IMG/VR virus record: IMGVR_UViG_2875697941_000003
DNA length: 54,981 nt
DNA from: a virus
Taxonomy: Duplodnaviria; Heunggongvirae; Uroviricota; Caudoviricetes
Strand: one strand, 5' to 3'
The translations under genes were made by a program, and so were the position numbers. Below are positions 5,561-44,457 of this stretch, piece by piece (within the stretch, counting starts at the first letter, position 1; the number at the start of each line of letters is the position of its first letter). The notes under the pieces are model-generated. The model searched no databases, was not told the DNA's origin, and saw nothing but the letters and a program-made list of their open reading frames with translations.

Positions 5561-5571
5561 ATTCCCCCCAC

Positions 5572-5598
5572 AAAAAAGCCCGCCTGAACCGGCGGGCT
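5572..5598 (-). terminator. Rho-independent terminator downstream of lom
   Basis: Minus-strand hairpin AGCCCGCC-GGTTCA-GGCGGGCT followed by TTTTTTGTGG. Confidence 0.75.
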
Positions 5599-5624
5599 GT
5601 CATAACACTGTGTTACCTGGCTAA

Positions 5625-6224
5625 TCAGAATTTATAACCGACACCAACGATGAAACTGTTGGTACGCCAGTCACCGCTGCCGGAGCCTTCATAAGCGACG
5701 TCAACGGCCACGGATTCGGTCGGGTTAAACTGCACGCCAGCTCCCCACGCCAGAGAGGTGTTACTGTGGCGAGCGTCATCACTTCCGGTCAGCACGTCGT
5801 GCGTTTTTCCCTTGTTGTCAGTTACGCGGAGATAATCCCCGGAAAAAGTCGACACACGGCTGTAAGCCACGCCTGCCATCGCATACGCGCTGAACCATTC
5901 ATTCACGCGTACAGACGGCCCCGCCATCACGCTGAACCAGCGGTTACGCACGGAATCTTCATGCCAGCGGGTATCGCTGTAACGGGTAAGCTGGCGATTC
6001 TTGTCTCCTGCATAGCTGAACGACGTCACCATCCCCAGTGTGTCCGTAAACTCATAACGGTATTTCACGTTAATCCCGTTCAGATCATCACTGCCGGGAA
6101 CGTTCGTCCGGGCATGAAGATACCCCGCGCTCAGCGTGGACTGATGTTCAGACGCCCATACAGGCGCACCGGATACGGCCAGACAAATGGCTGCGGACAA
6201 AATGGCTGCACAAACTTTACGCAT
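5625..6224 (-). CDS. lomR: Outer membrane beta-barrel protein Lom (Ail/Lom family), 199 aa
   Basis: Signal peptide, aromatic C-terminal residue (GYKF), lambda-Lom-like sequence and position between J and stf. Confidence 0.85.
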
Positions 6225-6248
6225 AATTACCTCTCGCTTTTCTGCAAT

Positions 6249-6273
6249 AAAAAAGGCGCCATTTCTGGCGCCC
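6249..6273 (-). terminator. Rho-independent terminator between J and lom
   Basis: Minus-strand hairpin GGGCGCC-AGAAAT-GGCGCC followed by TTTTTTATTG. Confidence 0.7.
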
Positions 6274-6291
6274 GTATATGGGTTATAAAAT

Positions 6292-20932: not shown

Positions 20933-21697
20933 TTAATCAACGATTGTGATACCGTCTTTCAATGCGTTTTGCTTACCTGCAACATCCAGTGCATCAAAAG
21001 CAGAGCGTTTCATCGTTTTCTGACCAATATCATGCTGTGTCGGACGGGAGCCGCCGCCATTGTTGCCACTGGCTTTCAGGATGTAGTCTTTCTGAGGGTA
21101 ATTTTCGACAAGGAACTCCAGCGCCTCATCAAACTGCGCCAGTTCGCCAGGCTTCGCGCGGGAATAAATTTTGTTGCCGGAAGCGTCATAAGCAACGATC
21201 TTCCCTTCTTCCACTTTGAATGCCTGCCCGAAGCGGGCTTGTAATAAATCTGCCGGGATCGCAATTTTATCGGCAATATATTTTGAACCCGCAAAACTAC
21301 CGCCAATCATAGAATCGTAAAGCTGCGTCTCCAGCATCTGAGAGCGTTGCTTTTCTTCATCTAATTGCTGCTGAAAATTTTTCGTAATTTCTGCCTTAAC
21401 CTGGTCAACCTGTCCCGCATCGATCAGCTTTTTCTGGTCGATTTTTAACAGCATTTCCAGTGCCTCGATCGCCTTCTTCGGGTCTTCGATAGCGGCAAAC
21501 TTAGCCAGTTTTTCCTCTGCAGCTTCTTTAGCCAGGCGATGATTTTTTGCCTCGCCATTAAGCTCTGTAATTTTTTTTATCGCCAGCGGTGCATCGAAGC
21601 CGATTTCTTTACCATCGTCGTGCACATAAACTGGCAGGCCAGCAGTATCAATTTCTGCGTATTGTTTTCCGTTAATCTCGACCGTTTTCAGTTTCAT
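20933..21697 (-). CDS. Capsid scaffolding protein (putative)
   Basis: Charged, helix-rich protein directly upstream of the major capsid gene. Confidence 0.55.
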   Translation of the reverse strand: MKLKTVEINGKQYAEIDTAGLPVYVHDDGKEIGFDAPLAIKKITELNGEAKNHRLAKEAAEEKLAKFAAIEDPKKAIEALEMLLKIDQKKLIDAGQVDQVKAEITKNFQQQLDEEKQRSQMLETQLYDSMIGGSFAGSKYIADKIAIPADLLQARFGQAFKVEEGKIVAYDASGNKIYSRAKPGELAQFDEALEFLVENYPQKDYILKASGNNGGGSRPTQHDIGQKTMKRSAFDALDVAGKQNALKDGITIVD

Positions 21698-21801
21698 ATT
21701 AGTACCTGGTTTAAGTCTTCCGACAGTTACGCTGCTCACCATCCGGATCGCAGCAATAAAAAAGGCCACCCGAAGGTAGCCTGTTGTAATAAATGATTTA
21801 T

Positions 21802-22917
21802 TTAAATCCCTGCTTTTCTGAATACCTGTGCATCACGCTCACGGAGTTGCTTCAGCGTCAGCCATTCGCCTTTATCGGTGTAAAATTCATCTGGCGACAT
21901 ACCGCCATCCCGAATCAGCTTTGCCCGGGTTTCCCCCACAATCTGTTTTTGTCTGGTGTAAGGCTGACGCAAAAACCATTCCCTGTAGGTTGTATCTCCG
22001 GCCACCACGCCATCCATGCTGGCCCGCTCAGCCGGGGAAATATCACGAACATCAATACCCAGTTCCTTCGCTGATTTCAGAATGAACGTTTCCGTTGAGC
22101 GGCAGCAGAAATGAATTTTTCCCGGCCCATGCAAATAAGGCACACTGTGACCTACAGGTTTATTATCCAGCGTATATTTGAGGCGATCCCTGATTCGACA
22201 TTGTGGCGTAGTACGATTATCAAGCGTTGATAACCATTGCTTACCCTTAATCAAATCATTATTCGCGCTGGCAAAACTCTCACGGGCAGTAGCAGCAAGA
22301 TGTCCAACCGCTGTTTTTGCAATGCTGGCCGCATTAGCCCGGCTCATCTGCAATGCACCATCCTGAAATCCCTTGCTGACATGTCCCCGAATTTTTCTTG
22401 CGATCTGCTCATTGGTATCCCCCAGCAAAAAACCCTGACGCACCGTATTTGTTATGCGTCTGAGCCGATCCGCCTCAAGATCCAAGGCCCACTCACTGAG
22501 CAGTCGTCCCTGGAATGGTCGCGCCATTGCAGCGGCGTAAAGTGCATCAGAAGATATACCAACCAGAGGGTGAACATCAGCAACAAAATCAGGTAGCAGA
22601 GAATCAAACAGACTTAACTGATAACCAGCCTCATAAATTGCCAGCTCGTTCAGCTCTCCGGAGAGACTGGTAAACATGCTGTTAATAGCAGCGCGGTTAA
22701 CCTCTCTGACACTCGCCAGAAGTGACTCCAGGCGCGTAACGGTAAAACTACCAGGATCGAGGCTGTCCAGTGCTACCAGCAGGCGAGCTGTAAGCTCCGC
22801 ATCGCTGTCATTCAGTATTTTCACCATTCTGGCAGCCACACCAGTGCTATAGCGGGATATCCAGACTGCATGAGCAATTGATTCATCACGCAGCCGTTCA
22901 TTCACGGTTTGCATCAT
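21802..22917 (-). CDS. Head morphogenesis protein (minor head protein, SPP1 gp7 / Mu F-like)
   Basis: Position directly downstream of portal; size; sequence resembles this family. Confidence 0.6.
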   Translation of the reverse strand: MMQTVNERLRDESIAHAVWISRYSTGVAARMVKILNDSDAELTARLLVALDSLDPGSFTVTRLESLLASVREVNRAAINSMFTSLSGELNELAIYEAGYQLSLFDSLLPDFVADVHPLVGISSDALYAAAMARPFQGRLLSEWALDLEADRLRRITNTVRQGFLLGDTNEQIARKIRGHVSKGFQDGALQMSRANAASIAKTAVGHLAATARESFASANNDLIKGKQWLSTLDNRTTPQCRIRDRLKYTLDNKPVGHSVPYLHGPGKIHFCCRSTETFILKSAKELGIDVRDISPAERASMDGVVAGDTTYREWFLRQPYTRQKQIVGETRAKLIRDGGMSPDEFYTDKGEWLTLKQLRERDAQVFRKAGI

Positions 22918-24306: not shown

Positions 24307-25617
24307 TTAAATCCGAAGTGATGTGACTCTTCCGGTCGGTTTGACAATAGGGAATTGCTTAACGATGAAATAACCTCCGGCATCATTCGGGTGATCATTG
24401 CCAGATTTTTTATCAGGCTCCCCCTTATCATCCCAGATCTGTTGCTCCAGAGATTCGGCATATACCGGACAACGCTTCACATTAACTTTATAGCGACGCT
24501 CACCATTGGCATTGCAGAACATTGCATTCATTGAGTTAACGCGATCTTTTACTGGCGGGTTCGAGCTGTTCACCACAACGTTAAAACCTGCCTGCTTAAG
24601 CTGGGCTATATCCGTCGTACTTGCGTTACTTGATTTTCTGGAATCTCCGGAAGCATCTGGATAAATATAAATCTCCCTCACTTTCCGGTAATCATGCCCG
24701 TCATACAGCCAGAAGCGTTCTTTAATGAGGCGGATCATATCCGGCGTATCGTAGGCATTGATGATTTCAGTTACCGCACATGGAAGCCCCAAACGCAGCA
24801 CATGGACGATTCCCGCCATCTTTCCAACGTTAAAATCCATCCCAATATAAATCGGCTCCCCTGGCTGCTCCACTTCTTCGCAATTATTCAGTTTCCGGTC
24901 AAACTGATGGTAAACAGTACCACTTGTCAGGTTAGTAAACCGTCCTAGAAGATAGGCTTTAATCAGCTCTGGAGGGTATGATTCAAGAAGTGAAGGAATG
25001 TAATCTGCTGGCAGGTTCTTTTCATTATCGAAAGTAGATGCCTGCACCAGACCATACAGTGAGGCCAGCTCTGTTTTTTCACGCACGGCTTTAACAAACT
25101 GCTCGTAGACAAATTTGAATCCTTCCGGCGTGGTTGTAACGTCAATACCGTTGCGAAGTCCATCAATCTTATAACGCATACGCGCAATTATCTTGCGCCA
25201 CGCCGTTCTGGCTTTTTCCTTCGGCAAAATGTCCAGTTCATCCACCAGCGCATTACCAATTTTGAAACCGACGATCGTTTGTGGCTTCTCCATCGATCTG
25301 CAGATAGTGGTTCCCCGATACTGGCGTCCGTAATAAAAGTGAACCTCTTTATTTCCCTCATTAATTTTTACGTTCAATCCCCAGTCAGCAGCAACTTCTT
25401 CCACTGTAGGGTAAAAAATATCGCGAATTTGGGGATACGTTGGCGCAAAATATCCCTGATTTATACCTGGATGCTCCCAAATCCCCTTGCATATGCCGCC
25501 ACACCCAACCCATGTTTTGCCCGAGCCAAAACCAGCAATATAGGCTTTAAATTTATGGGGCATTGAAAGAAATCGCGCCTGAGGCACATTAAGCGTCGGA
25601 GAGATCATCTTCATCAC
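24307..25617 (-). CDS. Terminase large subunit
   Basis: Walker A-like GFGSGKT near N-terminus, acidic nuclease-type C-terminal half, ~436 aa, position. Confidence 0.85.
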   Translation of the reverse strand: MMKMISPTLNVPQARFLSMPHKFKAYIAGFGSGKTWVGCGGICKGIWEHPGINQGYFAPTYPQIRDIFYPTVEEVAADWGLNVKINEGNKEVHFYYGRQYRGTTICRSMEKPQTIVGFKIGNALVDELDILPKEKARTAWRKIIARMRYKIDGLRNGIDVTTTPEGFKFVYEQFVKAVREKTELASLYGLVQASTFDNEKNLPADYIPSLLESYPPELIKAYLLGRFTNLTSGTVYHQFDRKLNNCEEVEQPGEPIYIGMDFNVGKMAGIVHVLRLGLPCAVTEIINAYDTPDMIRLIKERFWLYDGHDYRKVREIYIYPDASGDSRKSSNASTTDIAQLKQAGFNVVVNSSNPPVKDRVNSMNAMFCNANGERRYKVNVKRCPVYAESLEQQIWDDKGEPDKKSGNDHPNDAGGYFIVKQFPIVKPTGRVTSLRI

Positions 25618-26683
25618 TCCTTAATCTGGCATCAACCACATTAATATTGATCGCCACAGGCTGGGGATGTTCATTATCCTCCACCGTTTCGATCTCTTTG
25701 CGCAGCTTCTGGTTCTCTATTCTGCGCCGTTCAATTTCCAGTTCCTGTAGCCGCTTATCTGCACATAATGCCCCGCCAGCAGAAAGCAAACGCAACAATT
25801 CACGCCGGGCGGCAGCCTTATCCTCCAGCAGGATCTCAACACCGTATTTTCCGAGCTTTGACCCTGCATATAATTGCCGCGCATCCCCATCAAGCAGTGT
25901 GGTATCAGCCATATAAAGCTGTCCTGTTCCCTCACCGCAGCACTTCGGGCAATCAGGATTGGGTATGGCGTTATCAACAAAGCCGAGGCCTCCATATTCC
26001 GGCTCGGGTTTACCATCTCTGGAGGCCTGTGCCGCAGCCTTATCGAATTCTGCAATATCACGCCACTGGTAGAGATGATTCTCGCCCCAGCAATAACGGC
26101 AGTTAACACGGCGAAATTGTGCCAACTGATTGGGGTCGGCCTGGACAATGGCCATCAACTGGCTCACCAGTAAATCCAGGTCTGCGGTATAGCGTTTCTG
26201 GTACTGATTGCGGAAGTAGCTGATAGCACGATAAACCCTGGCATTTCTAAGCATACGGCTGGCGTTGCTGTTAGCTGTCGCACCTTGCCCCTCATAACCA
26301 GCCAGTCGGTATGCCTCTGTCGGCTTTTTCCCCTGAGCAACCAACATGGCGAATTTTGCCTGCTGGTCAGAAATACCGAATTCATCGGGGCAGAACGAAA
26401 TTTCTTCCGTGTCCCCCTCAATCAGGAGTGCATCGGATACAGCCTTTTTTTTCTGAGATTTTCCGTTCTGCCTTTGCGCAGTCTGCGCAGTTTTTTTTCG
26501 CGCACTTTTTTGCGCAGTTTTGCGCATTTCTTTCTGCGCATTTTTCGGAGTTTTTTTGATGTAACGACGGGCTGTTGCGTAGTTCAGTCCCCTTGCTTCA
26601 CACCATGCCACCGGAGATATACCGGAGCGGGTGTATTCAGCAATATACTCCTGCTGCAACGCCCCCCAGTCCGGTCTGCTCAT
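25589..26683 (-). CDS. Terminase small subunit with extra N-terminal HTH and a Cys-rich (CxxC...CxxCC) region
   Basis: Terminase_2-type motif FAMLVAQGKKPTEAYRLAGY...ASRMLRNARV; directly upstream of TerL. Confidence 0.65.
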   Translation of the reverse strand: MSRPDWGALQQEYIAEYTRSGISPVAWCEARGLNYATARRYIKKTPKNAQKEMRKTAQKSARKKTAQTAQRQNGKSQKKKAVSDALLIEGDTEEISFCPDEFGISDQQAKFAMLVAQGKKPTEAYRLAGYEGQGATANSNASRMLRNARVYRAISYFRNQYQKRYTADLDLLVSQLMAIVQADPNQLAQFRRVNCRYCWGENHLYQWRDIAEFDKAAAQASRDGKPEPEYGGLGFVDNAIPNPDCPKCCGEGTGQLYMADTTLLDGDARQLYAGSKLGKYGVEILLEDKAAARRELLRLLSAGGALCADKRLQELEIERRRIENQKLRKEIETVEDNEHPQPVAININVVDARLRSDEDDLSDA

Positions 26684-26686
26684 CAG

Positions 26687-26938
26687 TTAGTCCTGATTTT
26701 TATCCACCCTGAGTAGTTCGCGCAGAGCAAAGGCATCCCCTTTTCTGGCAAGCTTAAACAATGCCGCTCGTAACTCGGCTTCACCTTTCGCTCTGCCCTT
26801 ACGGATGGCCGCATAAAAATCTGTCATTGCTTCCCGATTTTCTTTCAGTCGGTTCAGATCAACATCCAGAACGTCAGCGATTTGTTGTGCAGTCATCCGG
26901 CACGCTGCCAGAGACTCGACTTTCGAATACGGAATCAT
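26687..26938 (-). CDS. Small HTH-like hypothetical protein coupled to terminase small subunit
   Basis: Stop codon 4 nt from the TerS start; HTH-like segment TAQQIADVLDVDLNRL. Confidence 0.45.
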   Translation of the reverse strand: MIPYSKVESLAACRMTAQQIADVLDVDLNRLKENREAMTDFYAAIRKGRAKGEAELRAALFKLARKGDAFALRELLRVDKNQD

Positions 26939-27830
26939 TTGTCACCCCCATTGATATGCAGGGTGTCTTCTTCCTGTATTTTTCGTGAAGGATTTTTACT
27001 GCAGCGTTGTTCCAGGTGACCTGATGGTGAATGCGTTTATGGCTGGCACCCATCAGTGAGATTTTTACGCACGACGGCGAATACATGACGGAGTAAAAAC
27101 TTTTAACGTAGGTTCCGGAATCCAGATACAGCTCGGTCATTCCGCCGCTGTTTTTCTGCGTCTGTTTCTGCCCTAACTGGACAGCACCGATCGTCATAAA
27201 CAATTCACCACAGCGACCGAGATTCGTGTACGTATTCACATCCTCGTTAATGCGCCCCATGAATGAGAACGGTCGATCAACCGAACAGATAAAGCTGTTC
27301 ATTGCCTTGCGTTTCACCCACGAAGCATGGCCGCCATTGTCACCAAGAAAATCCCCGCCCTGCGACATAGCGATGGAAAGCGCGGGTATTGATTCGTAAT
27401 ACGCCAGCATTTCAGAAAGGATCGCATCCAGTTTCCTTATCGGGAAATAGGCCTGGTCATAGTTGCGATCCACCCGAAACTGGAACTCGTGATAATCATC
27501 ATCGAGCTGAATGAAGTATTTACACCCGACCAGTTTTGCCAGGTCGAAACAGGCATTACGGGCGTAAAAAATTGAGCGGCGATCACCAAAATTATCGGCT
27601 TCGTCAAAACGACTGGCAATATCGGCTTTGGAAAATACCAGCACCTGTTCACCAAATTCAGCCATGTACTGATGCCGTGTCTTATCTTCATCATCAACAA
27701 CGATAAAAATTTTCCCGGTATAGCCAGCACGACGCAACGTCCGGTAAGTCAGAACTTTGTCCGGTCGCCCGTGAGTCAGAATAAAGGCGCAAAAATCATC
27801 ACGCATATTCCTCCTCCTCCTCCCCGCCAT
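26874..27830 (-). CDS. GT-A fold (GT2-like) glycosyltransferase-like protein, soluble, ~310 aa
   Basis: FIVVDDEDK and ARNACFDLAKLVGCKYFIQLDDDY resemble the GT2 xDD and DxD signature regions; no transmembrane segments. Confidence 0.5.
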   Translation of the reverse strand: MAGRRRRNMRDDFCAFILTHGRPDKVLTYRTLRRAGYTGKIFIVVDDEDKTRHQYMAEFGEQVLVFSKADIASRFDEADNFGDRRSIFYARNACFDLAKLVGCKYFIQLDDDYHEFQFRVDRNYDQAYFPIRKLDAILSEMLAYYESIPALSIAMSQGGDFLGDNGGHASWVKRKAMNSFICSVDRPFSFMGRINEDVNTYTNLGRCGELFMTIGAVQLGQKQTQKNSGGMTELYLDSGTYVKSFYSVMYSPSCVKISLMGASHKRIHHQVTWNNAAVKILHEKYRKKTPCISMGVTNDSVFESRVSGSVPDDCTTNR

Positions 27831-28593
27831 GCATGATCTCCACCATGCGCTGCGTCATTCGGACAAATCCATTTTCAATAGCCTGCTGATAATCAATGAT
27901 CACCAGCGCCGACTCCTCGAAAAGGCACTGAATTTCAGCGGGGGCATGAGCGTAATAGTCCGCAATTCTGCTGAAATTAAACACTGTGTGACGTTCTGCC
28001 GCACACAGGAGGAATTTCTCAATATCAGGATCAAGGGACGCCGAACGTATCCGGCTGATCAGCTCCTGAGTTTTCGTATCGTCGTACAGTTCACTGATAT
28101 CCGGTTTACCGCCCGACGGCTCATAAACAGGCGTATCAATTTTCGTCGTATACGGCTCCTCCTCATTTCCTGTACCGGGCAAAACATCCGTCAACAGTTC
28201 ATCAATTTCTGTCGGGATGAAGCCTGTCAGGGAGACATCAAAATCAGCATTGATTAGGTCCGACAGCTCCATCCGCAACAGATCTTCATCCCAGCCAGCA
28301 TTCATCGGCAGGCGATTATCTGCCAGGCGGTACGCCTTTTTCTGCTCATCCGTCAGGCCAGACAGAACAATGACCGGAACAGAATCCATTTTGAGCATTT
28401 CAGCCGCCATAACACGACCGTGACCCGCAATAATTTCGCCCTTTTCGTCAATCAGCACCGGATTAGTCCAGCCGAATTGCTTAATACTTTCTACCAGTTG
28501 TGCCACCTGCTCAGGGCTGTGCGTCCTGGCGTTGTGCGCATACGGTGACAATTCTTGTAATGGGCGATAGACTATCTTTAATTTCTCGCTCAT
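27799..28593 (-). CDS. ParB-like nuclease domain protein (ParB/Srx N-terminal domain), 264 aa
   Basis: ParB box-like motif IIAGHGRVMAA in the N-terminal domain; acidic C-terminal tail. Confidence 0.7.
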   Translation of the reverse strand: MSEKLKIVYRPLQELSPYAHNARTHSPEQVAQLVESIKQFGWTNPVLIDEKGEIIAGHGRVMAAEMLKMDSVPVIVLSGLTDEQKKAYRLADNRLPMNAGWDEDLLRMELSDLINADFDVSLTGFIPTEIDELLTDVLPGTGNEEEPYTTKIDTPVYEPSGGKPDISELYDDTKTQELISRIRSASLDPDIEKFLLCAAERHTVFNFSRIADYYAHAPAEIQCLFEESALVIIDYQQAIENGFVRMTQRMVEIMHGGEEEEEYA

Positions 28594-28610: not shown

Positions 28611-28644
28611 ATAAAACGCACCCCAGCAGCCAGTGCTACTGGGG
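28611..28644 (-). terminator. Possible terminator downstream of trkG
   Basis: Minus-strand hairpin CCCCAG-12 nt loop-CTGGGG followed by TGCGTTTTATTCAT. Confidence 0.35.
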
Positions 28645-28730: not shown

Positions 28731-30188
28731 TTAGGAGCGCCAAAAAAAACCTGAAAACAATATAATAACAGGATAAATTTCAAGGCGACCAAGAATCATA
28801 GCTATGCACATTAAACATTTTGCAATGTCATTAAGCACTCCGAATGACGATGCAGTAGCCCCAAAACCTAATCCCATATTATTAATACATGCAGCCACTG
28901 TTGCAAATGATGTAAGAAAATCATATCCCATACCATTTAACACCAGTATAAAAAACACCGTGAAGAGAGTATAAAGAAAAAAGAAACTCCATACAGACCT
29001 CATTACACGATCTGTAACTATCTTCCCTCCTACATTTACACTCAACAACGCTCTGGGATGAGAAAGCTGATTTATCTCATGTTTGCTTTGTTTGAAAAGT
29101 ATAAGAAATCGAAGTGACTTAATTCCACCACAAGTTGAACCTATACATCCCCCAAAGAAACTTGACAACAGCAAAAACACTATCGTGTGCGTGGGCCAAC
29201 TTGCATAATCCTGCGTAGCTAAACCATTATCAGTGAGCATGGAGCTGGCAAGAAAAAACGAATGAATAAAACTTCCATGCAAGTCATACATACCTATATG
29301 CCAGACCTGGAAAGAGGTAACAATGATCACCCCTAAGGCTATTAACAGAAAGAAACGAAGTTCAATATCTCTGATTAAAGGTTTTATCGTTTTCCTGCTA
29401 ATAACAATATACCAAAGAGTGAAGTTGAAAGCCGATAGCAGGGAAAAAGAACCAGCCACCAGCTCAACCAAATAGTTATTAAAATATCCGATACTCTCGC
29501 TATGAGTTGAGAAACCACCAAGCGAAACTGTGGAAATCCCGTGACAAATAGCATCAAACAAAGGCATTCCTGCAAGTCTATAACAGACAATACAAGCAAT
29601 ACCTAATAAAGAATAAGTTATCCACAGTGTCCGTGACGTATCGGCCAGGCGGGGAGTGAGTTTGTCATCCTTAAATGGCCCCGGCATTTCTGACTGATAA
29701 AGCTTTGCACCACCAATACCCAATAATGGCAATACAGCAACCGCCAGAACAATAACTCCTAAACCACCTATAAAATTTAACTGTGACCGATAGTACAAAT
29801 ATGCCCGAGGTAATGAACTAACATCATCAATTACAGTTGCTCCTGTTGTTGTTATTCCAGAAACCCCTTCAAACAGAGCATCAATGAACGTTAAATTAAG
29901 TTCTGAGTCAATCCATAAAGGGAATGCACTAATAACAGAAAACAAAATCCAAAACATTACAATTATAATAAACCCATCACGGGTACGTAATTGAATGCCA
30001 GATTTCTTAGTTGTATACCACGCTCCGCCACCAATGCAAAAAAATATAACGAAAGTTATAAAGAAAACGAACAGGCTTTTTTCTTTATAAAACAATGCTA
30101 CAACCATTGGTGGCAACATTGAAAGACTATAGAGCCAAACCAGGAACCCACACATATGAGTAACAACTCTTACATGAGATGTATTCAT
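28731..30188 (-). CDS. trkG: Trk-system K+ uptake protein TrkG (TrkH/TrkG family), prophage-borne
   Basis: Sequence MNTSHVRVVTHMCGFLVWLYSLSMLPP... recognised as K-12 Rac TrkG; multi-pass membrane protein. Confidence 0.9.
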   Translation of the reverse strand: MNTSHVRVVTHMCGFLVWLYSLSMLPPMVVALFYKEKSLFVFFITFVIFFCIGGGAWYTTKKSGIQLRTRDGFIIIVMFWILFSVISAFPLWIDSELNLTFIDALFEGVSGITTTGATVIDDVSSLPRAYLYYRSQLNFIGGLGVIVLAVAVLPLLGIGGAKLYQSEMPGPFKDDKLTPRLADTSRTLWITYSLLGIACIVCYRLAGMPLFDAICHGISTVSLGGFSTHSESIGYFNNYLVELVAGSFSLLSAFNFTLWYIVISRKTIKPLIRDIELRFFLLIALGVIIVTSFQVWHIGMYDLHGSFIHSFFLASSMLTDNGLATQDYASWPTHTIVFLLLSSFFGGCIGSTCGGIKSLRFLILFKQSKHEINQLSHPRALLSVNVGGKIVTDRVMRSVWSFFFLYTLFTVFFILVLNGMGYDFLTSFATVAACINNMGLGFGATASSFGVLNDIAKCLMCIAMILGRLEIYPVIILFSGFFWRS

Positions 30189-30325
30189 ATCTAAATATTC
30201 TTTCAATTATAACCACCTTGCTGCAATATTATGATTATACTGTATAAAATTTAACTCCTCTTAGATCTTACTTCACTGTTCCTTATGAAACAATCATCAA
30301 AATGAATCATATTGTAGTTAAGATT

Positions 30326-30802
30326 TTACTTTAAACACTGCTCGGTTATGTATTGCTGAGCACCTTCAAGTTGGGCCTGCATCATTACCAGTCGTTCCCG
30401 GAGGGTGAAATAATCCCGTTCAGCGGTGTCTGCCAGTCGGGGGGAGGCTGCATTATCCACGCCGGAGGCGGTGGTGGCTTCACGCACTGACTGACAGACT
30501 GCTTTGATGTGCAACCGACGACGACCAGCGGCAACATCATCACGCAGAACATCATTTTCAGCTTTCGCATCAGCTAACTCCTTCGTGTATTTTGCATCGA
30601 GCGCAGCAACATCACGCTGACGCATCTGCATGTCAGTAATTGCCGCGTTCGCCAGCTTCAGTTCTCTGGCATTTTTGTCGCGCTGTTCTTTGTAGGCGAT
30701 GGCGTTATCACGGTAATGATTAACACCCCATGACAGGCAGACGACGATGCAGATAACCAGAGCGGAGATAATCGCGGTTACTCTGTTCATTGCTGACCCC
30801 AC
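30326..30802 (-). CDS. Spanin inner-membrane subunit Rz (i-spanin)
   Basis: Near-identical to lambda Rz (N-terminal TM, coiled coil). Confidence 0.9.
30385..30570 (-). CDS. rzoR: Spanin outer-membrane lipoprotein Rz1 (o-spanin), nested in +1 frame inside Rz
   Basis: [23 protein letters not shown]... lipobox plus PPPPP stretch, lambda Rz1-like. Confidence 0.85.
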
Positions 30803-31200
30803 AAACAGATTTCACGCTCAATCTCACGACGAGTCATGAGACCTTTCCATTGCTTACCGCCAGCATATGTCCAGCGACGTAGCTGATCACATGCGCCTTT
30901 GATATCGCCCTGGTTTATTTTGCGAAGAAGCGTCGATGTTCTGAAATTGCCAGCACCCACGTTGTAAACGAATGAGTANTTCGTGTATTTTGCATCGAGC
31001 GCAGCAACATCACGCTGACGCATCTGCATGTCAGTAATTGCCGCGTTCGCCAGCTTCAGTTCTCTGGCATTTTTGTCGCGCTGGGCTTTGTAGGTAATGG
31101 CGTTATCACGGTAATGATTAACAGCCCATGACAGGCAGACGATGATGCAGATAACCAGAGCGGAGATAATCGCGGTTACTCTGTTCATTGCTGACCCCAC
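30787..31200 (-). other. Chimeric duplicate segment: Rz N-terminus (73 codons), single N at 30979, then endolysin C-terminus; probable misassembly
   Basis: ORF translation switches from Rz sequence to R sequence at the N; the copy differs from the full Rz by a few substitutions. Confidence 0.6.
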
Positions 31201-31679
31201 AAACAGATTTCACGCTCAATCTCACGACGAGTCATGAGACCTTTCCATTGCTTACCGCCAGCATATGTCCAGCGACGTAGCTGATCACATGCGCCTTTGA
31301 TATCGCCCTGGTTTATTTTGCGAAGAAGCGTCGATGTTCTGAAATTGCCAGCACCCACGTTGTAAACGAATGAGTAAAGAGCGCCGCGCGTTGTTTCCGG
31401 TATATCGACTTNGATGTACGGGTTAATTTGTCTGGCGACNGTGGCAAGGTCTTTATTCAAGAGTGNTTTGCATTCTGCTTTGGTATACGTTTTACCGAGC
31501 ATGATGTCTTTTCCTGTATGCCCGTGACATACAGTCCATACACCAACAATATCTTTGTATGGTATGTAGCTGACACCTTCCAGACCATCGTTACCACTTG
31601 GGCCAGTGATTAACACTGATGCTATAGCAATTGCTCCGCCACCAATAGCAGCAACGGCTTTTCGTAATGATGGAGGCAT
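31185..31679 (-). CDS. SAR endolysin (phage 21 R21-type, T4-lysozyme-like muramidase with N-terminal signal-anchor-release domain)
   Basis: N-terminus [26 protein letters not shown] (Gly/Ala-rich SAR TM) and C-terminal lysozyme sequence match R21; three internal Ns. Confidence 0.85.
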
Positions 31680-32080
31680 TATTCACCTCTCGCAGCCTTG
31701 CGCTTATCTTCTTTAATCTTGAAATAAAGGTTTGTCAGGTACGTCAGCAGGCCAAATACCAGGCTACCCAGCACACCTATTGCTGCCCACTGTGAGGGCG
31801 TGACTTTATCGAGCAGCTGTAAAAACCAGTAACCGGCACTACCTGCTGANTTATTCAAGAGTGTTTTGCATTCTGCTTTGGTATACGTTTTACCGAGCAT
31901 GATGTCTTTTCCTGTATGCCCGTGACATACAGTCCATACACCAACAATATCTTTGTATGGTATGTAGCTGACACCTTCCAGACCATCGTTACCACTTGGG
32001 CCAGTGATTAACACTGATGCTATAGCAATTGCTCCGCCACCAATAGCAGCAGCAACGACTTTTCGTAATGATGGAGGCAT
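31679..32080 (-). other. Chimeric duplicate segment: endolysin N-terminus (76 codons), single N at 31850, then pinholin C-terminus; probable misassembly
   Basis: ORF translation switches from R to S sequence at the N; copies differ by substitutions (VVAAA vs AVAA; LLDKV vs LLDRV). Confidence 0.6.
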
Positions 32081-32295
32081 TATTCACCTCTCGCAGCCTT
32101 GCGCTTATCTTCTTTAATCTTGAAATAAAGGTTTGTCAGGTACGTCAGCAGGCCAAATACCAGACTACCCAGCACACCGATTGCAGCCCACTGTGACGGA
32201 GTTACTCTATCGAGCAACTGTAAAAACCAGTAGCCAGCACTGCCTGCGGAGGTGCCGTAGGCAATGCCTGTTGAAATTTTGTCCATGGATTTCAT
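32080..32295 (-). CDS. Pinholin S21-type (class II holin) with dual-start motif
   Basis: [26 protein letters not shown]... matches phage 21 S21; two Met codons (32295 and 32286) behind a strong SD GGAGGTGA. Confidence 0.85.
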
Positions 32296-36358: not shown

Positions 36359-36804
36359 AGTAGCCACATGATAAGTTGCTGGAATCATATTTCCCACTCA
36401 AGTCATTAACATTTGATAAGATATATCTAAAAGGACGCCTTTACATTATTTATGTGTATATAATTTATTTATATACACAGTAAAGGTATCCTGGGAAAAT
36501 ATTTATCGTTAAAAAATACATCATAAATAATTAAGCTGAAATTTCAGAACACAACTAATACACACAATAAGGTTCAGTAACAATAATCTATGTGGACTAC
36601 ATCGAGATTTTTTGATTAAACTTTAATAACTTATTCCTAACACACAGAATGCATAAACTAAAAGTAAAACAAATAGTTATACGAAAAACAACCATATTTA
36701 TTATATCTTCTCCTCTAATCAACATATCAATTATGTGTTTCATAACAGCTTGACATAACCCTCAAAAACACGCATTTATAATGCATGTTTTTGATGAGGT
36801 GGTT

Positions 36805-37143
36805 ATGACACACAAGAGAATTCCTAAAGATTGGGTAATCAAACGCTCAACTCCGTTCTTCACAAAAGAGAACGTACCTTCAGCGTTATTAACACATCAT
36901 AATACAGCAGCAGGTGTTTTTGGGCAGTTGTGCGTAATGGAAGGCACTGTAACATATTATGGTTTTACTGATGAGAATGCTACTGAACCGGAGATAAAAG
37001 TAGTCATTAATGCTGGCGCTTTTGCAACAAGCCCACCACAATACTGGCACCGTGTTGAACTAAGCGATGATGCTCAGTTTAATATTAACTTTTGGGTCGC
37101 TCCAGACTTCTCGGGCGAAAAAGTCTATAGCACCAAAAAATAG
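36805..37143 (+). CDS. Hypothetical protein (~113 aa), first gene of the cargo island
   Basis: ORF with GAGGTGG SD before internal ATG at 36805; no phage-like features. Confidence 0.5.
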   Translation: MTHKRIPKDWVIKRSTPFFTKENVPSALLTHHNTAAGVFGQLCVMEGTVTYYGFTDENATEPEIKVVINAGAFATSPPQYWHRVELSDDAQFNINFWVAPDFSGEKVYSTKK

Positions 37144-37866
37144 ATGATCATATTAAAAATGCTTTAACAGTCAGACCCGGCAGGGCTATCCCCGACGGGT
37201 CTCATTTTTGTAAATATATTGGTTCTACATTGACAGGAGACTTCAACCATAAGAAGTAATCTGAATACTTGAGCAATAAATTTACTTAAGATTAATGAGC
37301 GCACCTTGCCGGACAAAGATAAACCAAGGTAACACCTTTTTTCTAGCCAGTATGTAATCAATCAGAAAGCCGCTCCATAAGAACAACAGCAAGACAATAA
37401 ATTGCCATTACAGCCGCAATAGCTAGCGCACATTTGAGAACCAGCACGACAACCTCCTGTATTGGACGTACACCAGTTCTGATAAATATGAGGCTGTCTC
37501 ATCATTGATTCAATATAACTATTGGGTATAGTTTCTGTGATTTTGTTCTGTAGAAATGGAACACAACAACCAGTCACCACCAGCACTTCTTTAAATACGC
37601 CAAGTCCGACGCAAGCTAACCTTCTAGTCCGCTTTGAGCGAGGAGCGGACCAAACCCGGCCAACTGACTCTTAAAGGGGCCGCAGGAATTTTTCGTCTGA
37701 ACTTTCGAAGCTCCTCTCCCTGAAGACAGAAAACTTCTGTGTGCTGTGGGAATATTGAATCTTTGCCTTAGATATAAATAATTTTATCCCGCCTGAAGTT
37801 TACATTATTTTATTTATCTGTTTTTCTAAATCAGACTGCACTCCTTACTTAAATCAGGAGCCAGTC

Positions 37867-39066
37867 ATGCCATTTGTTATTTATGTGTTTACTATCAGTG
37901 CCTTTGCGCTCGGACTCGCGGAATTTGTCCCCATTGGGCTGACAGACGTTATGGCTCAGGGGTTGTGTGTGGGTGTGGAGCAGACCGGGGCAGCGGTTAC
38001 AACCTATGCACTGGGGGCAACGTTCGCGGCACCCGTACTGTCTGCGCTGACAGCAAGCTGGAGCCGGAAAAATGTAATGCTTACAACTGCCGTTGTGTTT
38101 ACTGCCGGTAGTCTGGCGGCCGCGTTTGCAGCCACATTACCTCAGCTCCTGTTAGCGCGGTTCATTGCTGGTCTGGGACACGGCCTGTTTCTGGCTGCGG
38201 CATCCAGTACCGCAGCTCGTCTTGCTGGACCGGGTAAAGCAGGCAGAGCGGTGGCTGTGGTATTTGGTGGCTTTACTCTGGCGATGGCAATCGGCGTACC
38301 GCTGAGTACATGGTTGGGGGGGGTGGTCTCATGGCGTCCAGTTCTCGGCGCTATTGCCGCTTTTGGCGCGTTCGGATTCCTTGGACTGTTGTTCGGTATG
38401 AAAGATCCCGTACGCAGCGTGCCCGGTGAACATAGTGACTCAGCAATGCAGAATATCGGCATGCTGTTTAACCGTAAGTTGCTGGCCGGCGCGCTGGTTA
38501 CGGTGCTGGCGTATGCAGGCTCGTTTACGGATTACACCTTTATCGCACCTATTCTGACGCAGGTGACAGGGGTTACCGGAGCAACGGTGAGTCTGTTTAT
38601 GCTGGTTTACGGTATTACAGCTGCGGTAGGTAATATTCTTGGTGGGAAACTTACCGACAGCATGGGGGTTAATCGTGCCAATATACTCATCATTAGCGGC
38701 ATTGTTGTTGTCGTGCTTGGTATGTGGCTGCTGTCATCCTCACCGGTGAGCATGGGCATTCTGGTTGCGCTGCTGGGTATGGTGACATTTGCCGCAGTGC
38801 CGGCACTGCAGGCCCGTCTGATTGGTGTCGCTGAGCAACATGCTCCTCATGCGCATGGTGTTGCTGCCGGCCTGAATATTGCGGGCTTCAACTCAGGTAT
38901 AGCGCTGGGATCAGTACTGGGCAGCATTACTATAAGCCACGCCGGTATCGTGTATACCGGTATCAGCGGTGCGATTGTTTCTCTGCTCGGCCTGCTGTTG
39001 CTGCTTGCACAAATCCGTCGCAGCCACAGTCGTAAATTTCAACAGGTTAAAATCGTAGGCCAGTAA
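37867..39066 (+). CDS. MFS transporter (12-TM), 399 aa
   Basis: Hydrophobic multi-pass sequence with MFS-like architecture. Confidence 0.8.
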   Translation: MPFVIYVFTISAFALGLAEFVPIGLTDVMAQGLCVGVEQTGAAVTTYALGATFAAPVLSALTASWSRKNVMLTTAVVFTAGSLAAAFAATLPQLLLARFIAGLGHGLFLAAASSTAARLAGPGKAGRAVAVVFGGFTLAMAIGVPLSTWLGGVVSWRPVLGAIAAFGAFGFLGLLFGMKDPVRSVPGEHSDSAMQNIGMLFNRKLLAGALVTVLAYAGSFTDYTFIAPILTQVTGVTGATVSLFMLVYGITAAVGNILGGKLTDSMGVNRANILIISGIVVVVLGMWLLSSSPVSMGILVALLGMVTFAAVPALQARLIGVAEQHAPHAHGVAAGLNIAGFNSGIALGSVLGSITISHAGIVYTGISGAIVSLLGLLLLLAQIRRSHSRKFQQVKIVGQ

Positions 39067-39077
39067 AGGGAGGTTAT

Positions 39078-39770
39078 ATGCTTACCCGTGAAAATATGCT
39101 TAATGGCACATTTGTCAGGGTGCATGAAGCGCTGCTCCCGGCGAATATGCTCTGGGACGCTGAAAAAATACGCGCATCAATGAACTCTACTCTGGAGGAG
39201 CGCCCGACGGGTGCTCCTGTCTGGATATTTGCCTACGGGTCATTGATGTGGAATCCCGTGCTGGCGATTGAAGAAATGCAACGGGCCCGTCTGAAAGGAT
39301 GGCAGCGCAGTTTCTGCATTCGTTTGATATCCGGACGAGCGACTCCTGATGTCCCCGGCAGGATGTTATCGCTCGACGAAGGTGGAATTACCGAAGGTAT
39401 TGCGTTCAGACTGCCGGAATCGACTCTTATTAATGAGCTGGAAATTGTCTGGACGCGCGAGATGATAACCGGTCTTTACCGTCCGGTCTGGGCAGACGTT
39501 TCGCTAGGAAACGGTAAGGAAATTCAGGCGCTGGCTTTCGTATCAGACAGACTGCATCCGCATTATGAACAGGACAATCTTACAGCGACCGTAGCGTTGA
39601 GCATCGCATCTGCCCGTGGAGACATTGGCACGAATGCAGATTATGTATGGAAACTGCAGGCCACTCTGGGTGCGTTGGGAATACGGGATGATTACGTGAG
39701 TGAACTGGCCCTTGCTCTGCATGAGGCTCCCTGTAACGATAAACTTCATCAGCGAGGCGCTTCACTATGA
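39078..39770 (+). CDS. ChaC-like gamma-glutamyl cyclotransferase family protein
   Basis: Conserved AYGSLMWNP motif and overall similarity to E. coli ChaC, but clearly a distinct paralog. Confidence 0.75.
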   Translation: MLTRENMLNGTFVRVHEALLPANMLWDAEKIRASMNSTLEERPTGAPVWIFAYGSLMWNPVLAIEEMQRARLKGWQRSFCIRLISGRATPDVPGRMLSLDEGGITEGIAFRLPESTLINELEIVWTREMITGLYRPVWADVSLGNGKEIQALAFVSDRLHPHYEQDNLTATVALSIASARGDIGTNADYVWKLQATLGALGIRDDYVSELALALHEAPCNDKLHQRGASL

Positions 39771-40648
39771 GCCATCTGAGCCATCTGCGAACGTTTCTTG
39801 AGGCCTATCGCTCTGGCTCCTTTTCAAAGGCGGCAGAACTACTGGGCATCACTCAGCCCGCGGCGTCACAGCATATCCAGTCTCTTGAGACTCTGGTTGG
39901 TAAGCGTCTGTTTATCAGGCAGGCCAGAGGCGTGACGGCAACCGAAGCTGCGGATGAGCTTGCCCGCTCAGTTTCACCCTTCATTGATGGTCTGGAAGAA
40001 AAGCTGTCCTCTTTCCGGTCAGGCTCTGTACGTGGGGGAACAATTAATCTGGCAGGACCGCCAGATTTTATTCATTCCCGGCTTGGGACAGTAATGGCTC
40101 CACTAATGAAGGAGGGGTATCGCCTACGCTTTCATACCGGCAATAAGCAACGTATTTATTCCCTTTTGCATGACGGGAGCGCCGATCTCGCTGTTACCGC
40201 ATCTATGCCTGATGACCGTCTGTACGGCTATGCACATCTACTGACTGAACGCATGCTCCTTGTTCATGCTCCCGCCATGTCAGAGATCATCGGATCAGAA
40301 CCTGGTGCTGAAACGCTTGCCTCATTACCGCTGATTGCTTATGACGAAGAGTTGCCACTGATTAGAGCGCTCTGGGCCTCCATTTTTCAGAGAGCCCCTG
40401 AGATGCAGGCTACATTCACCATTCCGGATTTACGTATTATCCGCGACTTGGTCTGTGACGGCCACGGGTGGACAGTGCTGCCGGATTATCACTGTGACAA
40501 TGACCTGAAAAGTGGTCGCCTGATTTCAGTGACACCTGCAGACCTCGCTCCGACTAATCATCTTTATCTGGTCTGGAACAAAAGGACGGCTAATAACAGC
40601 CGAACCGCCTATGTTCGGGATTACATTCTTAAAACGTTTCCGCGTTGA
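39767..40648 (+). CDS. LysR-family transcriptional regulator
   Basis: N-terminal HTH (HLRTFLEAYRSGSFSKAAELLGITQPAASQHIQSLE) plus LysR substrate-binding region; 293 aa. Confidence 0.85.
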   Translation: MSHLSHLRTFLEAYRSGSFSKAAELLGITQPAASQHIQSLETLVGKRLFIRQARGVTATEAADELARSVSPFIDGLEEKLSSFRSGSVRGGTINLAGPPDFIHSRLGTVMAPLMKEGYRLRFHTGNKQRIYSLLHDGSADLAVTASMPDDRLYGYAHLLTERMLLVHAPAMSEIIGSEPGAETLASLPLIAYDEELPLIRALWASIFQRAPEMQATFTIPDLRIIRDLVCDGHGWTVLPDYHCDNDLKSGRLISVTPADLAPTNHLYLVWNKRTANNSRTAYVRDYILKTFPR

Positions 40649-40778
40649 TGTTTGAAACGGATGATTGGCGATGCGTATCATAAGTTACGTATGTCCGCTT
40701 CTGGCACAAAGCAGACGCCCACTCTCACGCGAATGCTTTGCCCTTGACTTGCCAACAACCGTATCGCTTGCTCCGCAA

Positions 40779-42071
40779 CTATGGTTTTTTATTAGAATCT
40801 TCGCCACTAAATAAATTATAATAAATTGATTTTATTAGATATCTGTCAGAATCTATATGGTCAGCACGAGTAGCATGCTCTAATGTTTCAAATGCTAGGG
40901 TTTGTGCGGCTTCAGCAAAAATTCCAGGCCAACCCTTACTCAGCATCGACAGTCCTTTAAGTACCCTTATCTGAATTTCCCTCATACTGGCACCATCGCG
41001 CGCAACAGGTGAGAAAAAGTCTTCAAGTAGATCGTTATTCTGAAGTGGTGCAACATGTACAGAAGGATATTTCACTTCTATTTCATCAGATTTATTCTGC
41101 GCGTAAGCGGAAAGTATACGTACACCTCTGCCAATGACATCAATGGCGGTTCCAGGATCGTTCACTGCGGGGGAAAGGGCTCGGCAGGCTATTTCGGCCA
41201 TGACGCTAAGACAAAATCGGGGGTCCTGAGCAAATGAACGTACATCCGAGACAATAATCGTCTCAAGTAAATCGGTGCTGATTGATGACTCCTGGCCCTG
41301 ACTCAGGTACAAAACTGGCGTGGACGGATGTATGAAACTGCCCGGCTGCGCCACGAGGTATACATGACGGGGATCATTGGTCAGCAGCTTGCTGAGTTTC
41401 ACCATATCAACATATTCAACATAGCCAATCTTTTTCGGATAAACTGCAACCGTTCCTTTCGGCTGTTCATTGTTCTCAAGCCATGGATATCCGCCGAGAC
41501 AGGGATTTCTTGCTCTCGCAATAAATGTTTCGATGGCCGCCTGTTCTACTTTTGCCGTTGTCTCACCAACCCTCCCCAGAGAGGTCAAATGCTGTATCCA
41601 GCGAAGCAATGTGATGAGGATTAAGGCAATGACAACCAGTGTTACAATGAATAAAATGACTCTCCCCCTTTCTCCATAAGCTCCCATATTGAGGGCAATA
41701 ATCCCTACCAGACTGAAGAGAAAAGAACCGATGAAGGTGGCCAGTACATTTTGTGTGGTGACGTCTTCAACAACTAAACGAGTAGCTCTGGGAGTCACAT
41801 TAGTAGTGGCTGAACCGTAGGCTGTGACCATGATGCTCAGCGAAAATGTGGTCACTGCCAGCATACTCGATGCCAGTATGTTCAGAATGTTATCGACTGC
41901 TTCCGCACCAACCTTCACGGAAACCGACTCAGGTATCATTGATTTAAAAAGAATTGATAAAAGGGCCGTTATTATTGCGACAATTGCGAATAACGTTGCC
42001 CTGAACCATAGTTTTTTAAATGTCTGCTTCAGCATCCATTTCCAGCGTGAAATCATTCTGCATTCCCTCAT
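40779..42071 (-). CDS. DUF2254-type membrane protein (430 aa)
   Basis: N-terminal multi-TM region followed by soluble domain; family call from memory only. Confidence 0.5.
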   Translation of the reverse strand: MRECRMISRWKWMLKQTFKKLWFRATLFAIVAIITALLSILFKSMIPESVSVKVGAEAVDNILNILASSMLAVTTFSLSIMVTAYGSATTNVTPRATRLVVEDVTTQNVLATFIGSFLFSLVGIIALNMGAYGERGRVILFIVTLVVIALILITLLRWIQHLTSLGRVGETTAKVEQAAIETFIARARNPCLGGYPWLENNEQPKGTVAVYPKKIGYVEYVDMVKLSKLLTNDPRHVYLVAQPGSFIHPSTPVLYLSQGQESSISTDLLETIIVSDVRSFAQDPRFCLSVMAEIACRALSPAVNDPGTAIDVIGRGVRILSAYAQNKSDEIEVKYPSVHVAPLQNNDLLEDFFSPVARDGASMREIQIRVLKGLSMLSKGWPGIFAEAAQTLAFETLEHATRADHIDSDRYLIKSIYYNLFSGEDSNKKP

Positions 42072-42119
42072 ATTGCAGCCGGGATAAATAAATGCCGCCT
42101 CTGTGGCGGCATGTTGCTG

Positions 42120-44123: not shown

Positions 44124-44457
44124 TTATTCCATTAATTAAATCCGCACTGGATAGAAGGTACTACCTCTCACAGAGTAGCAAAGTTCAACTGGCTATGCGG
44201 GGTTAATCGGAATGCATGGTGGAATGAGTGCCGATACAAATCATCCTATATTCTAAGGAGTTTTAAGTTACTCAGCCTGCCAATTACTGGGGCATTTAAT
44301 TTGTATGATCTGTATCAAAGCTGGGATATAAGTTAAGTGAAGTATATTAGGCACGAATTACCAGCGTCTGCTCTTGGCACAAAGCGGACAACCACGCTAG
44401 CTCTACCCTGTGCCACAAAATGTCAATTTGCATCTGAACTAATGCACTTTAATCTCG

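Follow-up and report, generated by a model that had tools for sequence, protein, structure and literature searches.

TET-associated glycosyltransferase (TAGT)-type enzymes of phages have been noted before in association with ParB and terminase genes (Pyle et al.; Burke et al.), and two recent papers, one of them Pyle et al., describe 'solitary' TAGT or GT-A genes as a common, unexplained occurrence. Solitary family members lacking the enzymes for a hydroxymethyl handle were found in 288/753 phage genomes in one survey, and solitary members make up ~65% of mined contigs in Pyle et al. From another direction, a subclass of phage thymine dioxygenases needs a cognate ParB-like protein for activity on double-stranded DNA (O'Toole et al., PNAS 2026). 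That ParB has no DNA-binding domain, its N- and C-terminal parts are both required, and structural predictions put the enzyme between them. Here we analyze a 54,981-nucleotide (nt) stretch of DNA from a tailed phage (Caudoviricetes; IMG/VR record IMGVR_UViG_2875697941_000003), hereafter the window, in which a ParB-like gene and a TAGT gene lie side by side next to the terminase genes. The enzyme family is known, and the two-protein unit, with its orphan partner domain and no acceptor-generating enzyme, is one we did not find described in the literature examined; for ynaK, Ld25A and HHTV-2, we found nothing in the literature on function.

A ParB-like gene and a TAGT gene form a conserved overlapping pair

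The genes of interest are all on the minus strand. The features of the pair are as follows, with glycosyltransferase residues numbered on the 318-residue product.

27799..28593, minus strand: ParB-like partner gene, 264 amino acids (aa)
28183..28593, minus strand: ParB/Srx N-terminal domain, aa 1-137, with the GHGR box inside
28402-28434, minus strand: IIAGHGRVMAA, the GHGR box, read from the sequence
28117..28152, minus strand: linear motif YTTKIDTPVYEP, aa 148-159 of the ParB-like protein, from homologue alignments
27826..28101, minus strand: ParBC helical domain, aa 165-256, with R201, H202, Y214, E226 and D234 invariant
26874..27806, minus strand: glycosyltransferase from its likely start, 310 aa; start as in homologues and RefSeq
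26874-27830, minus strand: glycosyltransferase from the first ATG, at 27830, as an alternative, 318 aa
27681-27707, minus strand: FIVVDDEDK of the glycosyltransferase, read from the sequence
27690..27695, minus strand: D46-D47 within FIVVDDEDK, at the end of strand beta-2
27492-27515, minus strand: FIQLDDDY of the glycosyltransferase, read from the sequence
27495..27503, minus strand: DDD (D110-D112), putative DxD motif within FIQLDDDY, after strand E105-110
27237..27248, minus strand: NEDV (N195-V198), candidate catalytic acid/base region

The glycosyltransferase ATG at 27806 overlaps the stop codon of the ParB-like gene by 8 nt, in ATGCGTGA, and is preceded by a GGAGGAGGAGGAGG run. As read from the sequence, this overlap and run are an arrangement classic for translational coupling. 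The GGAGGAGGAGGAGG run (27806-27830) doubles as code for the acidic tail of the ParB-like protein (EEEEE-Y-A) and as the Shine-Dalgarno sequence of the glycosyltransferase; this double use may account for part of the conservation of the acidic C-terminus in ParB homologues.

To follow the two parts of the ParB-like protein separately, profiles of its N-terminal 137 and C-terminal 120 residues were run on the open reading frames (ORFs) of 55 loci, many of them close relatives, giving an effective sample of ~30 independent lineages. In 53/55 loci, prophages of eight phyla included, the gene immediately upstream of the glycosyltransferase bears the C-terminal part, which we call ParBC; of the other two loci, one is cut by a contig end and one has only a 5'-truncated fragment of the enzyme. 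The same gene order in this many loci argues that the adjacency is not due to chance. The ParB/Srx part is missing at several of these loci. The constant unit is therefore ParBC plus TAGT, with ParB/Srx as an exchangeable accessory. A preliminary description of this locus, made from its sequence, had proposed a pairing of ParB with glycosyltransferase. The adjacency holds, but the specific partner is the C-terminal ParBC and not the ParB/Srx domain. The association can also be approached from the other side: starting from stand-alone ParBC genes, a TAGT gene was immediately downstream in 6/6 places examined, with an overlap of 8-11 nt in four of the six. Among paired genes in general, the stop and start codons overlap mostly by 4-41 nt.

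The pair is widespread. A phage tblastn search found it at 40-46% protein identity in several unrelated viruses, including Lactobacillus gasseri phage phi jlb1, Nocardia phage NTR1, the haloarchaeal virus HHTV-2 and L. delbrueckii phages such as c5, where the pair comes first after the cos site. The same search found Vibrio phages (~191 kb) in which a stand-alone ParBC gene replaces the full ParB-like gene. A scan of one genome per species recovered the pair at 50-59% identity in Bacteroides, Dysgonomonas, Prosthecochloris, Desulfovibrionaceae, Acidobacteriota, Lachnospiraceae, Hyphomonadaceae, Saccharibacteria and Opitutia. This diversity comes from the species-representative scan and the phage tblastn, as the IMG/VR locus scan gave almost only near-identical E. 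coli prophages. Within E. coli, the full-length region is present in 867/5426 complete genomes (~16%). Nonsynonymous divergence (dN) is 0.28-0.31 for the ParB-like protein against enterobacterial homologues and 0.13-0.19 for the glycosyltransferase. Synonymous sites (dS) are saturated for both genes, so no dN/dS ratio was computed; judged from these alignments, dN/dS is far below 1 and both genes are under strong purifying selection.

The glycosyltransferase is a soluble GT-A enzyme of the TAGT family

The glycosyltransferase matches Pfam PF20691 (TAGT) with 121.5 bits (6.1e-35; cut-off 27.5), residues 16-230 aligning to positions 4-205 of the 205-position profile. Iyer and Aravind are said to have defined this family in 2013. 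The protein also matches phrog_842 (1.5e-103), and a conserved C-terminal extension of ~60 residues reaches beyond the Pfam domain. The E. coli enzyme has a C-terminus ~20-25 residues longer than in other genera (310 vs 285-290 aa), and this tail (26874-26960) overlaps the start of the next ORF. There is no membrane helix (maximal 19-residue Kyte-Doolittle mean 1.08). A GtrB-type O-antigen seroconversion enzyme was rejected on the lack of a transmembrane segment and on its neighbors, which are ParB and terminase genes; a known defense system was likewise rejected, PADLOC giving no defense-system match for the enzyme.

We judged residue invariance on 30 homologues of 59-99% identity. R22, D46, D49, D76-E77-x-D79-N80, Y89-A-R-N92 and D110-D111-D112-Y113 are invariant, as are Q157-x-G-D160, N195-E-D-V198, G229-G-M-T232 and H268-H269; D47 is conserved in at least 90%. 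D46-D47 adjoin strand E40-46 and, by analogy with GT-A enzymes, would be the nucleotide-binding acidic pair, while D110-D112 form a putative DxD motif for metal and nucleoside-diphosphate (NDP)-sugar. The pattern R...DDD...ED is the active-site signature of phage GT-A enzymes proven to glycosylate 5-hydroxymethylcytosine (5hmC, or hmC) in DNA, and of the kinetoplastid base-J glucosyltransferase (JGT), and the N195-V198 region corresponds to its 'EDY/F' motif (Pyle et al.). With R22, D110-D112 and E196-D197 all invariant, the enzyme matches this pattern, its third motif reading EDV in place of EDY/F.

An AlphaFold2 model built on a 30-sequence alignment predicts alternating strands and helices in a Rossmann-like sheet over residues 13-157, where the block-mean predicted local distance difference test (pLDDT) is mostly >85, with two blocks at 64-68 (residues 71-90). 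The top Foldseek matches in the Protein Data Bank (PDB) are all GT-A proteins: SpsA (best, 3.4e-4), ThuS/SunS, WrtF, glycogenin, COLGALT1 and LARGE1. A search of solved structures with the glycosyltransferase profile returned no sequence-level relative (best E 0.72). The preliminary description had pointed to a protein of ~310 aa with FIVVDDEDK and FIQLDDDY regions, a GT-A fold with a DxD and no transmembrane segment of the GtrB type. All of this is borne out, with both aspartate motifs invariant and the N-terminal half modeled as GT-A. Its GT2-like assignment survives in part: the enzyme is a soluble GT-A, but its family is TAGT rather than generic GT2.

ParBC is a distinct domain joined to exchangeable N-terminal modules

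The ParB-like protein consists of an N-domain, a linker and a C-domain. Over its full length, it matches phrog_620 (1.5e-90), and its N-domain is a marginal match to Pfam ParB_N (PF02195; 28.9 bits vs a cut-off of 26.3). The GxxR nucleotide-binding box is conserved and reads GHGR (residues 57-60), so the ParB/Srx protein with a GHGR-type box that was first described here is indeed encoded by the ORF at 27799-28593. Like the enzyme, this protein has no membrane helix (maximal 19-residue Kyte-Doolittle mean 1.25). Nothing supports the 'nuclease' label it had been given, as no nuclease motif was identified in it. The ParB/Srx domain is most like the module at the N-terminus of phage ParB-methyltransferase fusions (phrog_498, 1.2e-50; PADLOC MTase_II, 2.5e-38). 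A partition ParB of the ParABS type was considered and rejected: the protein is strongly acidic, it scores 38.5 bits on TIGR00180 against a cut-off of 58.45, and there was no helix-turn-helix (HTH) or ParA family match (parS was not searched).

ParBC occupies the C-terminal ~120 residues and combines a linear motif, Y[TS]xKIxxPxYxP, with a compact five-helix domain. In homologue alignments, Y148, P155 and Y157 of the linear motif are invariant across phyla, as are R201, H202, Y214, E226 and D234 in the helical domain. The motif has low pLDDT in the predicted model, which suggests that it is probably ordered only when partner-bound. ParBC has no Pfam family, and among PHROG profiles it matches the C-terminal part of phrog_620 only. 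A structure search of BFVD, a collection of predicted viral structures, returned just two proteins, both of the same family, and no other structural relative. The partner domain is thus described separately in no family or structure library searched here.

An exhaustive search of 1.84 billion representative proteins placed ParBC in 1410 clusters at 50% identity, 854 of them at E<1e-30, and the domain is always C-terminal. ParBC stands alone in 37 of the best 150 representatives and follows an N-terminal domain in 111. These N-terminal domains are diverse versions of ParB/Srx, with GHGR, GNMR, DGHHR and DGTQRH boxes, and in one case DUF3102 instead. At the 55 loci, the stand-alone proteins, 130-140 aa without ParB/Srx, come from Vibrio phages, a Lachnospiraceae element and others.

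The module sits beside packaging or replication genes

Terminase and portal genes dominate the three positions that follow the module in 24 diverse loci, with TerL in ~15 (of several unrelated types) and TerS in ~11; the terminases are of the Terminase_6N, Terminase_3 and GpA types. Replication or lysis genes lie upstream. Stand-alone ParBC modules are found instead inside a replisome cluster on contigs of 70-145 kb, in the order DnaB, primase, PolA, [TAGT], ParBC, TAGT, beta clamp, RecA, clamp loader.

Some loci have a second, divergent TAGT, and in one case a TAGT is fused to an S-adenosylmethionine (SAM)-dependent methyltransferase domain. The fusion is a 564-aa protein with a class-I SAM methyltransferase in a Hyphomonadaceae prophage (L107, 3581-5275), preceded by a ParB-ParBC gene and followed by a second TAGT. 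Two paralogous TAGT genes flank or follow a stand-alone ParBC in the interval between PolA and the beta clamp in a Bacteroidaceae contig (L102, 2970-5117) and in several of the 70-145 kb contigs (L117, 10001-12211; L119, 9156-11318). Together, the second TAGTs and the fusion suggest the stepwise building of a glycan. In one further phage lineage (L111-L113, ~3800-7600), ParBC-TAGT lies just downstream of isochorismatase/nicotinamidase-like, F420-ligase-like and nicotinate phosphoribosyltransferase genes, which may be an NAD-salvage (counter-defense) cluster.

What the pair may do

We propose that the pair carries out partner-assisted glycosylation of phage DNA late in infection, a reading to which we give an even chance of being correct. 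In this model, the two genes would be one functional unit expressed with late or DNA-handling genes. The 310-aa protein would be the catalytic subunit, a soluble, metal- and NDP-sugar-dependent GT-A of the TAGT family. ParBC would be its dedicated partner, made in fixed proportion through the overlapping stop and start codons, and probably binding and activating or positioning the enzyme. The N-terminal ParB/Srx may act as a facultative tether, probably to DNA or to the packaging machinery, by analogy with the ParB activators of thymine dioxygenases; lineages without it have the module inside the replisome gene cluster instead. Sugar would be added to replicated phage DNA before or during packaging and may protect it from host nucleases or other defenses. 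In proposing this, we infer that DNA receives the sugar, which sugar and acceptor are involved, that the two proteins interact and that the modification protects. Gene context favors DNA. Moreover, the enzyme keeps 40-59% identity despite unrelated terminases and capsids and both bacterial and archaeal hosts, which argues for an acceptor common to all of them, either DNA or ParBC itself.

Several observations weigh against this proposal. To our knowledge, there is no precedent for direct glycosylation of canonical DNA bases, and GREB1, a eukaryotic relative of the family, has been reported to glycosylate protein. No TET/JBP dioxygenase, thymidylate-synthase-type hydroxymethylase or DNA (cytosine) methyltransferase is encoded in the prophage; none of the three enzyme types was found within three genes on either side in the 24 diverse loci, within 10 kb on either side in the 70-145 kb contigs, or in the complete 31.8-kb genome of phage c5. 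The ParB-like protein is very acidic (isoelectric point 4.46, net charge -26), and profile searches found no HTH or other recognizable DNA-binding domain in it. The C-terminal half of the enzyme is modeled poorly, with pLDDT <50 over much of residues 160-318 and a mean pLDDT of 66.5. The T6 member of the Pfam family showed no similarity to this clade by BLASTP (best E 1.6) or hhalign (probability 0.1%). Finally, Pyle et al. judged glycosyltransferases without acceptor-making neighbors 'less likely' to be DNA modifiers.

The missing acceptor enzymes can be read in more than one way. A bolder form of the DNA proposal, which we consider doubtful, is that the two proteins, ParBC and TAGT, suffice for DNA glycosylation and require no hydroxymethylated base. 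Such a self-sufficient system may take two forms, with sugar placed directly on a canonical nucleobase or the backbone, or with ParBC itself creating or presenting the acceptor. We know of no phage for which a sugar on a canonical nucleobase or backbone position has been described.

The same absence, in the neighborhoods and in phage c5, also suits an enzyme that modifies protein, so that its product would be a sugar-bearing protein and not DNA. Its target could be the invariant Tyr/Thr of its partner's YTxKIxxPxYxP motif, much as glycogenin modifies itself, or else a protein of the packaging machinery or the virion. The Y148/Y157 motif lies in a predicted disordered stretch of the enzyme's obligate partner, the structural matches include the protein or peptide modifiers glycogenin, SunS/ThuS and COLGALT1, and GREB1 offers a reported example within the wider family. 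However, those matches are to generic GT-A proteins at E ~1e-3, and no virion or terminase protein is common to the host phages, which leaves ParBC as the only possible universal protein acceptor. The replisome placement, the methyltransferase-type ParB/Srx and the second TAGT and methyltransferase domains fit a DNA-borne glycan at least equally well. On this evidence, we think protein glycosylation unlikely.

Alternatively, the enzyme could have the classical TAGT role and add sugar to 5-hydroxymethyl-cytosine or -uracil, or to a sugar already on it, with the hydroxymethyl group made by an unrecognized, distant or host enzyme. All characterized TAGT-type enzymes do act on hydroxymethylpyrimidine DNA or its glucoside, and O'Toole et al. 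note that thousands of contigs matching profiles of the 5-methylpyrimidine dioxygenases (5mYOXs) without a TET/JBP annotation may hold highly divergent 5mYOXs. Phages of this kind carry many small unannotated hypothetical genes, c5 among them. Yet the largest such proteins of c5 do not exceed ~210 aa, seemingly too short for a dioxygenase, and there is no TET_JBP or thymidylate-synthase family match in the window, the neighborhoods or the complete c5 genome. ParBC, the sole constant neighbor, is predicted to be a 90-residue helical domain and not a jelly-roll. A host source is hard to picture as well, since we know of no hmC or 5-hydroxymethyluracil (hmU) in E. coli DNA. The classical role is accordingly improbable in our estimation.

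Equally improbable, we believe, is an activity directed at the host or at competitors, in which the enzyme would modify a host envelope polymer, a nucleotide, an immune signal or the DNA of a superinfecting phage, for exclusion or counter-defense. Pyle et al. raise the possibility of prophage glycosyltransferases acting on invading genomes and note a structural similarity to TarP, and the module here adjoins the trkG cargo gene. But the two genes belong to the late operon and are coupled to terminase genes, which is not a position of lysogeny-expressed cargo; the module is also present in phage c5, which has no annotated integrase or CI-type repressor, and in the replisome clusters of 70-145 kb contigs. 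The enzyme is soluble and without a PADLOC match, and an envelope acceptor is hard to reconcile with conservation across hosts that are Gram-positive, Gram-negative and archaeal.

Least credible, and in our view very improbable, is a packaging accessory in which the ParB-like protein is a nuclease or DNA-handling factor for terminase, like the HNH proteins of cos phages, and the enzyme is non-catalytic, structural or regulatory: the conserved position directly upstream of TerS/TerL (right after cos in c5) and the common annotation 'ParB-like nuclease' fit it, but every catalytic residue of the glycosyltransferase is invariant and the gene is under strong purifying selection, modules are also found at a distance from terminase genes, and it is the ParB/Srx domain, with no nuclease motif identified, that is dispensable while the enzyme and ParBC are not.

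The surrounding prophage

The window holds a Rac-like lambdoid E. coli prophage. One end carries integrase, RecE/RecT, SieB, a cI/Cro-type switch and YdaT, and the opposite end carries tail genes. Around the pair, the following features are found.

Upstream of 30206, minus strand: lysis cassette
28731-30206, minus strand: trkG cargo gene
28621..28644, minus strand: terminator-like hairpin between trkG and the ParB-like gene, a 10-bp stem followed by a T run, by consensus match only
26687..26938, minus strand: small HTH-like ORF between glycosyltransferase and TerS, 83 aa (69 aa from the RefSeq start at 26896)
25589..26683, minus strand: TerS; Pfam Terminase_2, phrog_51 6.4e-75
24307..25617, minus strand: TerL; Terminase_6N 3.5e-32, Terminase_6C 2e-10, with portal and head genes after it

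The preliminary description had placed the pair in a DNA-packaging module upstream of a small HTH gene and TerS, and the small ORF, TerS and TerL do follow in that order; the range it gave, 26687-28593, also takes in the small ORF. This ORF matches phrog_309 (terminase small subunit) at profile positions 145-218 only (8.3e-23), and enterobacterial relatives have an ORF of 79-85 aa in the same position. Also as first proposed, the Rac prophage of K-12 retains only remnants of the region, namely trkG, an 87-aa ynaK fragment, ydaY and ynaA.

A cargo gene for a potassium transporter, trkG, lies between the lysis cassette and the ParB-like gene. The hairpin that follows trkG comes shortly before the ParB start, and late transcripts would have to read through it to reach the module, for example with Q-type antitermination. 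The lysis region (30582-32250) contains three direct-repeat pairs of 200-300 nt, ~400 nt apart and 92-100% identical, and its Rz/lysozyme/holin-like ORFs are broken by ambiguous bases (119 N's in the window). The repeats and N's look like an assembly or consensus artifact rather than biology. Farther along the prophage is a cargo island (~36700-44200) with a GC content of 0.32-0.56, unlike its surroundings. In an identical copy (L001, NZ_CP019944.1), the island is annotated with DUF1971, an MFS transporter, a gamma-glutamylcyclotransferase, a LysR regulator, DUF2254 and a BCCT transporter.

Annotation of the module itself is uneven. In NZ_CP019944.1, RefSeq calls the first 258 nt of an intact ParB gene (21120-21907) a 'ynaK' pseudogene and leaves ~530 nt unannotated, which appears to be an artifact of naming after the truncated K-12 protein. 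In strain MB06173 (NZ_CM129884.1), an IS1A lies inside the ParB-glycosyltransferase region; two ParB fragments are annotated, and the enzyme is annotated as 'GREB1-related protein'.

Significance and comparison with known systems

This locus turns the puzzle of the solitary TAGT into a two-gene cassette in a common, tractable E. coli prophage. If DNA is the acceptor, the cassette would represent new DNA-modification chemistry or new targeting, with a bearing on the evasion of restriction and other defenses, on sequencing artifacts and on enzyme tools. Were the self-sufficient form true, a very widespread DNA modification would have gone unnoticed, in phages of many phyla, a haloarchaeal virus and ~1 in 6 complete E. 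coli genomes. With a protein as acceptor, the cassette would be a phage glycoprotein system, new and very widespread, that is tied to DNA replication and packaging. Either way, the pair broadens an emerging view in which ParB-like proteins serve as repurposed adaptors of DNA-modifying enzymes.

The closest described relatives of the enzyme are the TAGTs of phage 5mYOX clusters and JGT, with which it shares a strong profile match, the GT-A fold, the R...DDD...ED pattern and solubility. The 5mYOX-cluster enzymes are likewise phage-encoded and often near ParB and terminase genes. The locus described here differs from theirs in having no 5mYOX, cytosine methyltransferase or hydroxymethylase alongside, in the ~60-residue C-terminal extension of its enzyme and in an obligate ParBC partner that is absent from the published descriptions. 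The beta-glucosyl-HMC-alpha-glucosyltransferase of T2/T6 belongs to the same Pfam family, and the PHROG and RefSeq pipelines give its name to the PHROG family and to homologues of the present enzyme. The T6 enzyme itself scores only 37 bits on the family model. It works on alpha-glucosyl-hmC in a fully hmC-substituted genome, together with an alpha-glucosyltransferase and a dCMP hydroxymethylase, whereas no alpha- or beta-glucosyltransferase and no dCMP hydroxymethylase was found in the window or related loci. We therefore rejected that name for the enzyme, given the lack of pairwise or profile similarity to the T6 protein and the missing companion enzymes.

In its gene arrangement, the pair recalls the system of O'Toole et al., its nearest precedent from experiment, in which a ParB homologue without a recognizable DNA-binding domain is encoded beside the enzyme and terminase genes are frequent neighbors. 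There, the partner is an Fe(II)/2-oxoglutarate 5-methylpyrimidine dioxygenase; here, it is a GT-A glycosyltransferase. In that work, glycosyltransferases go with ParB-independent dioxygenases, and ParB goes with kinase and amino-acid-transferase pathways, which puts a ParB-glycosyltransferase pair without a dioxygenase outside the described classes.

A coupling of DNA glycosyltransferase to the replication machinery is known from T4, whose alpha-glucosyltransferase binds the gp45 sliding clamp. The stand-alone ParBC-TAGT modules adjoin clamp, polymerase and clamp-loader genes in a comparable way, but the T4 enzyme has a GT-B fold and an unrelated sequence and acts on hmC incorporated during replication. 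The ParB/Srx domain, for its part, is closely similar to that of phage ParB-DNA methyltransferase fusions, which are also found near terminase genes. In those fusions, ParB/Srx and effector are one protein, whereas the effector here is a separate glycosyltransferase polypeptide, with recruitment proposed to be through ParBC. This resemblance at the sequence level suggests that ParB/Srx may be a common device for coupling modifying enzymes to DNA.

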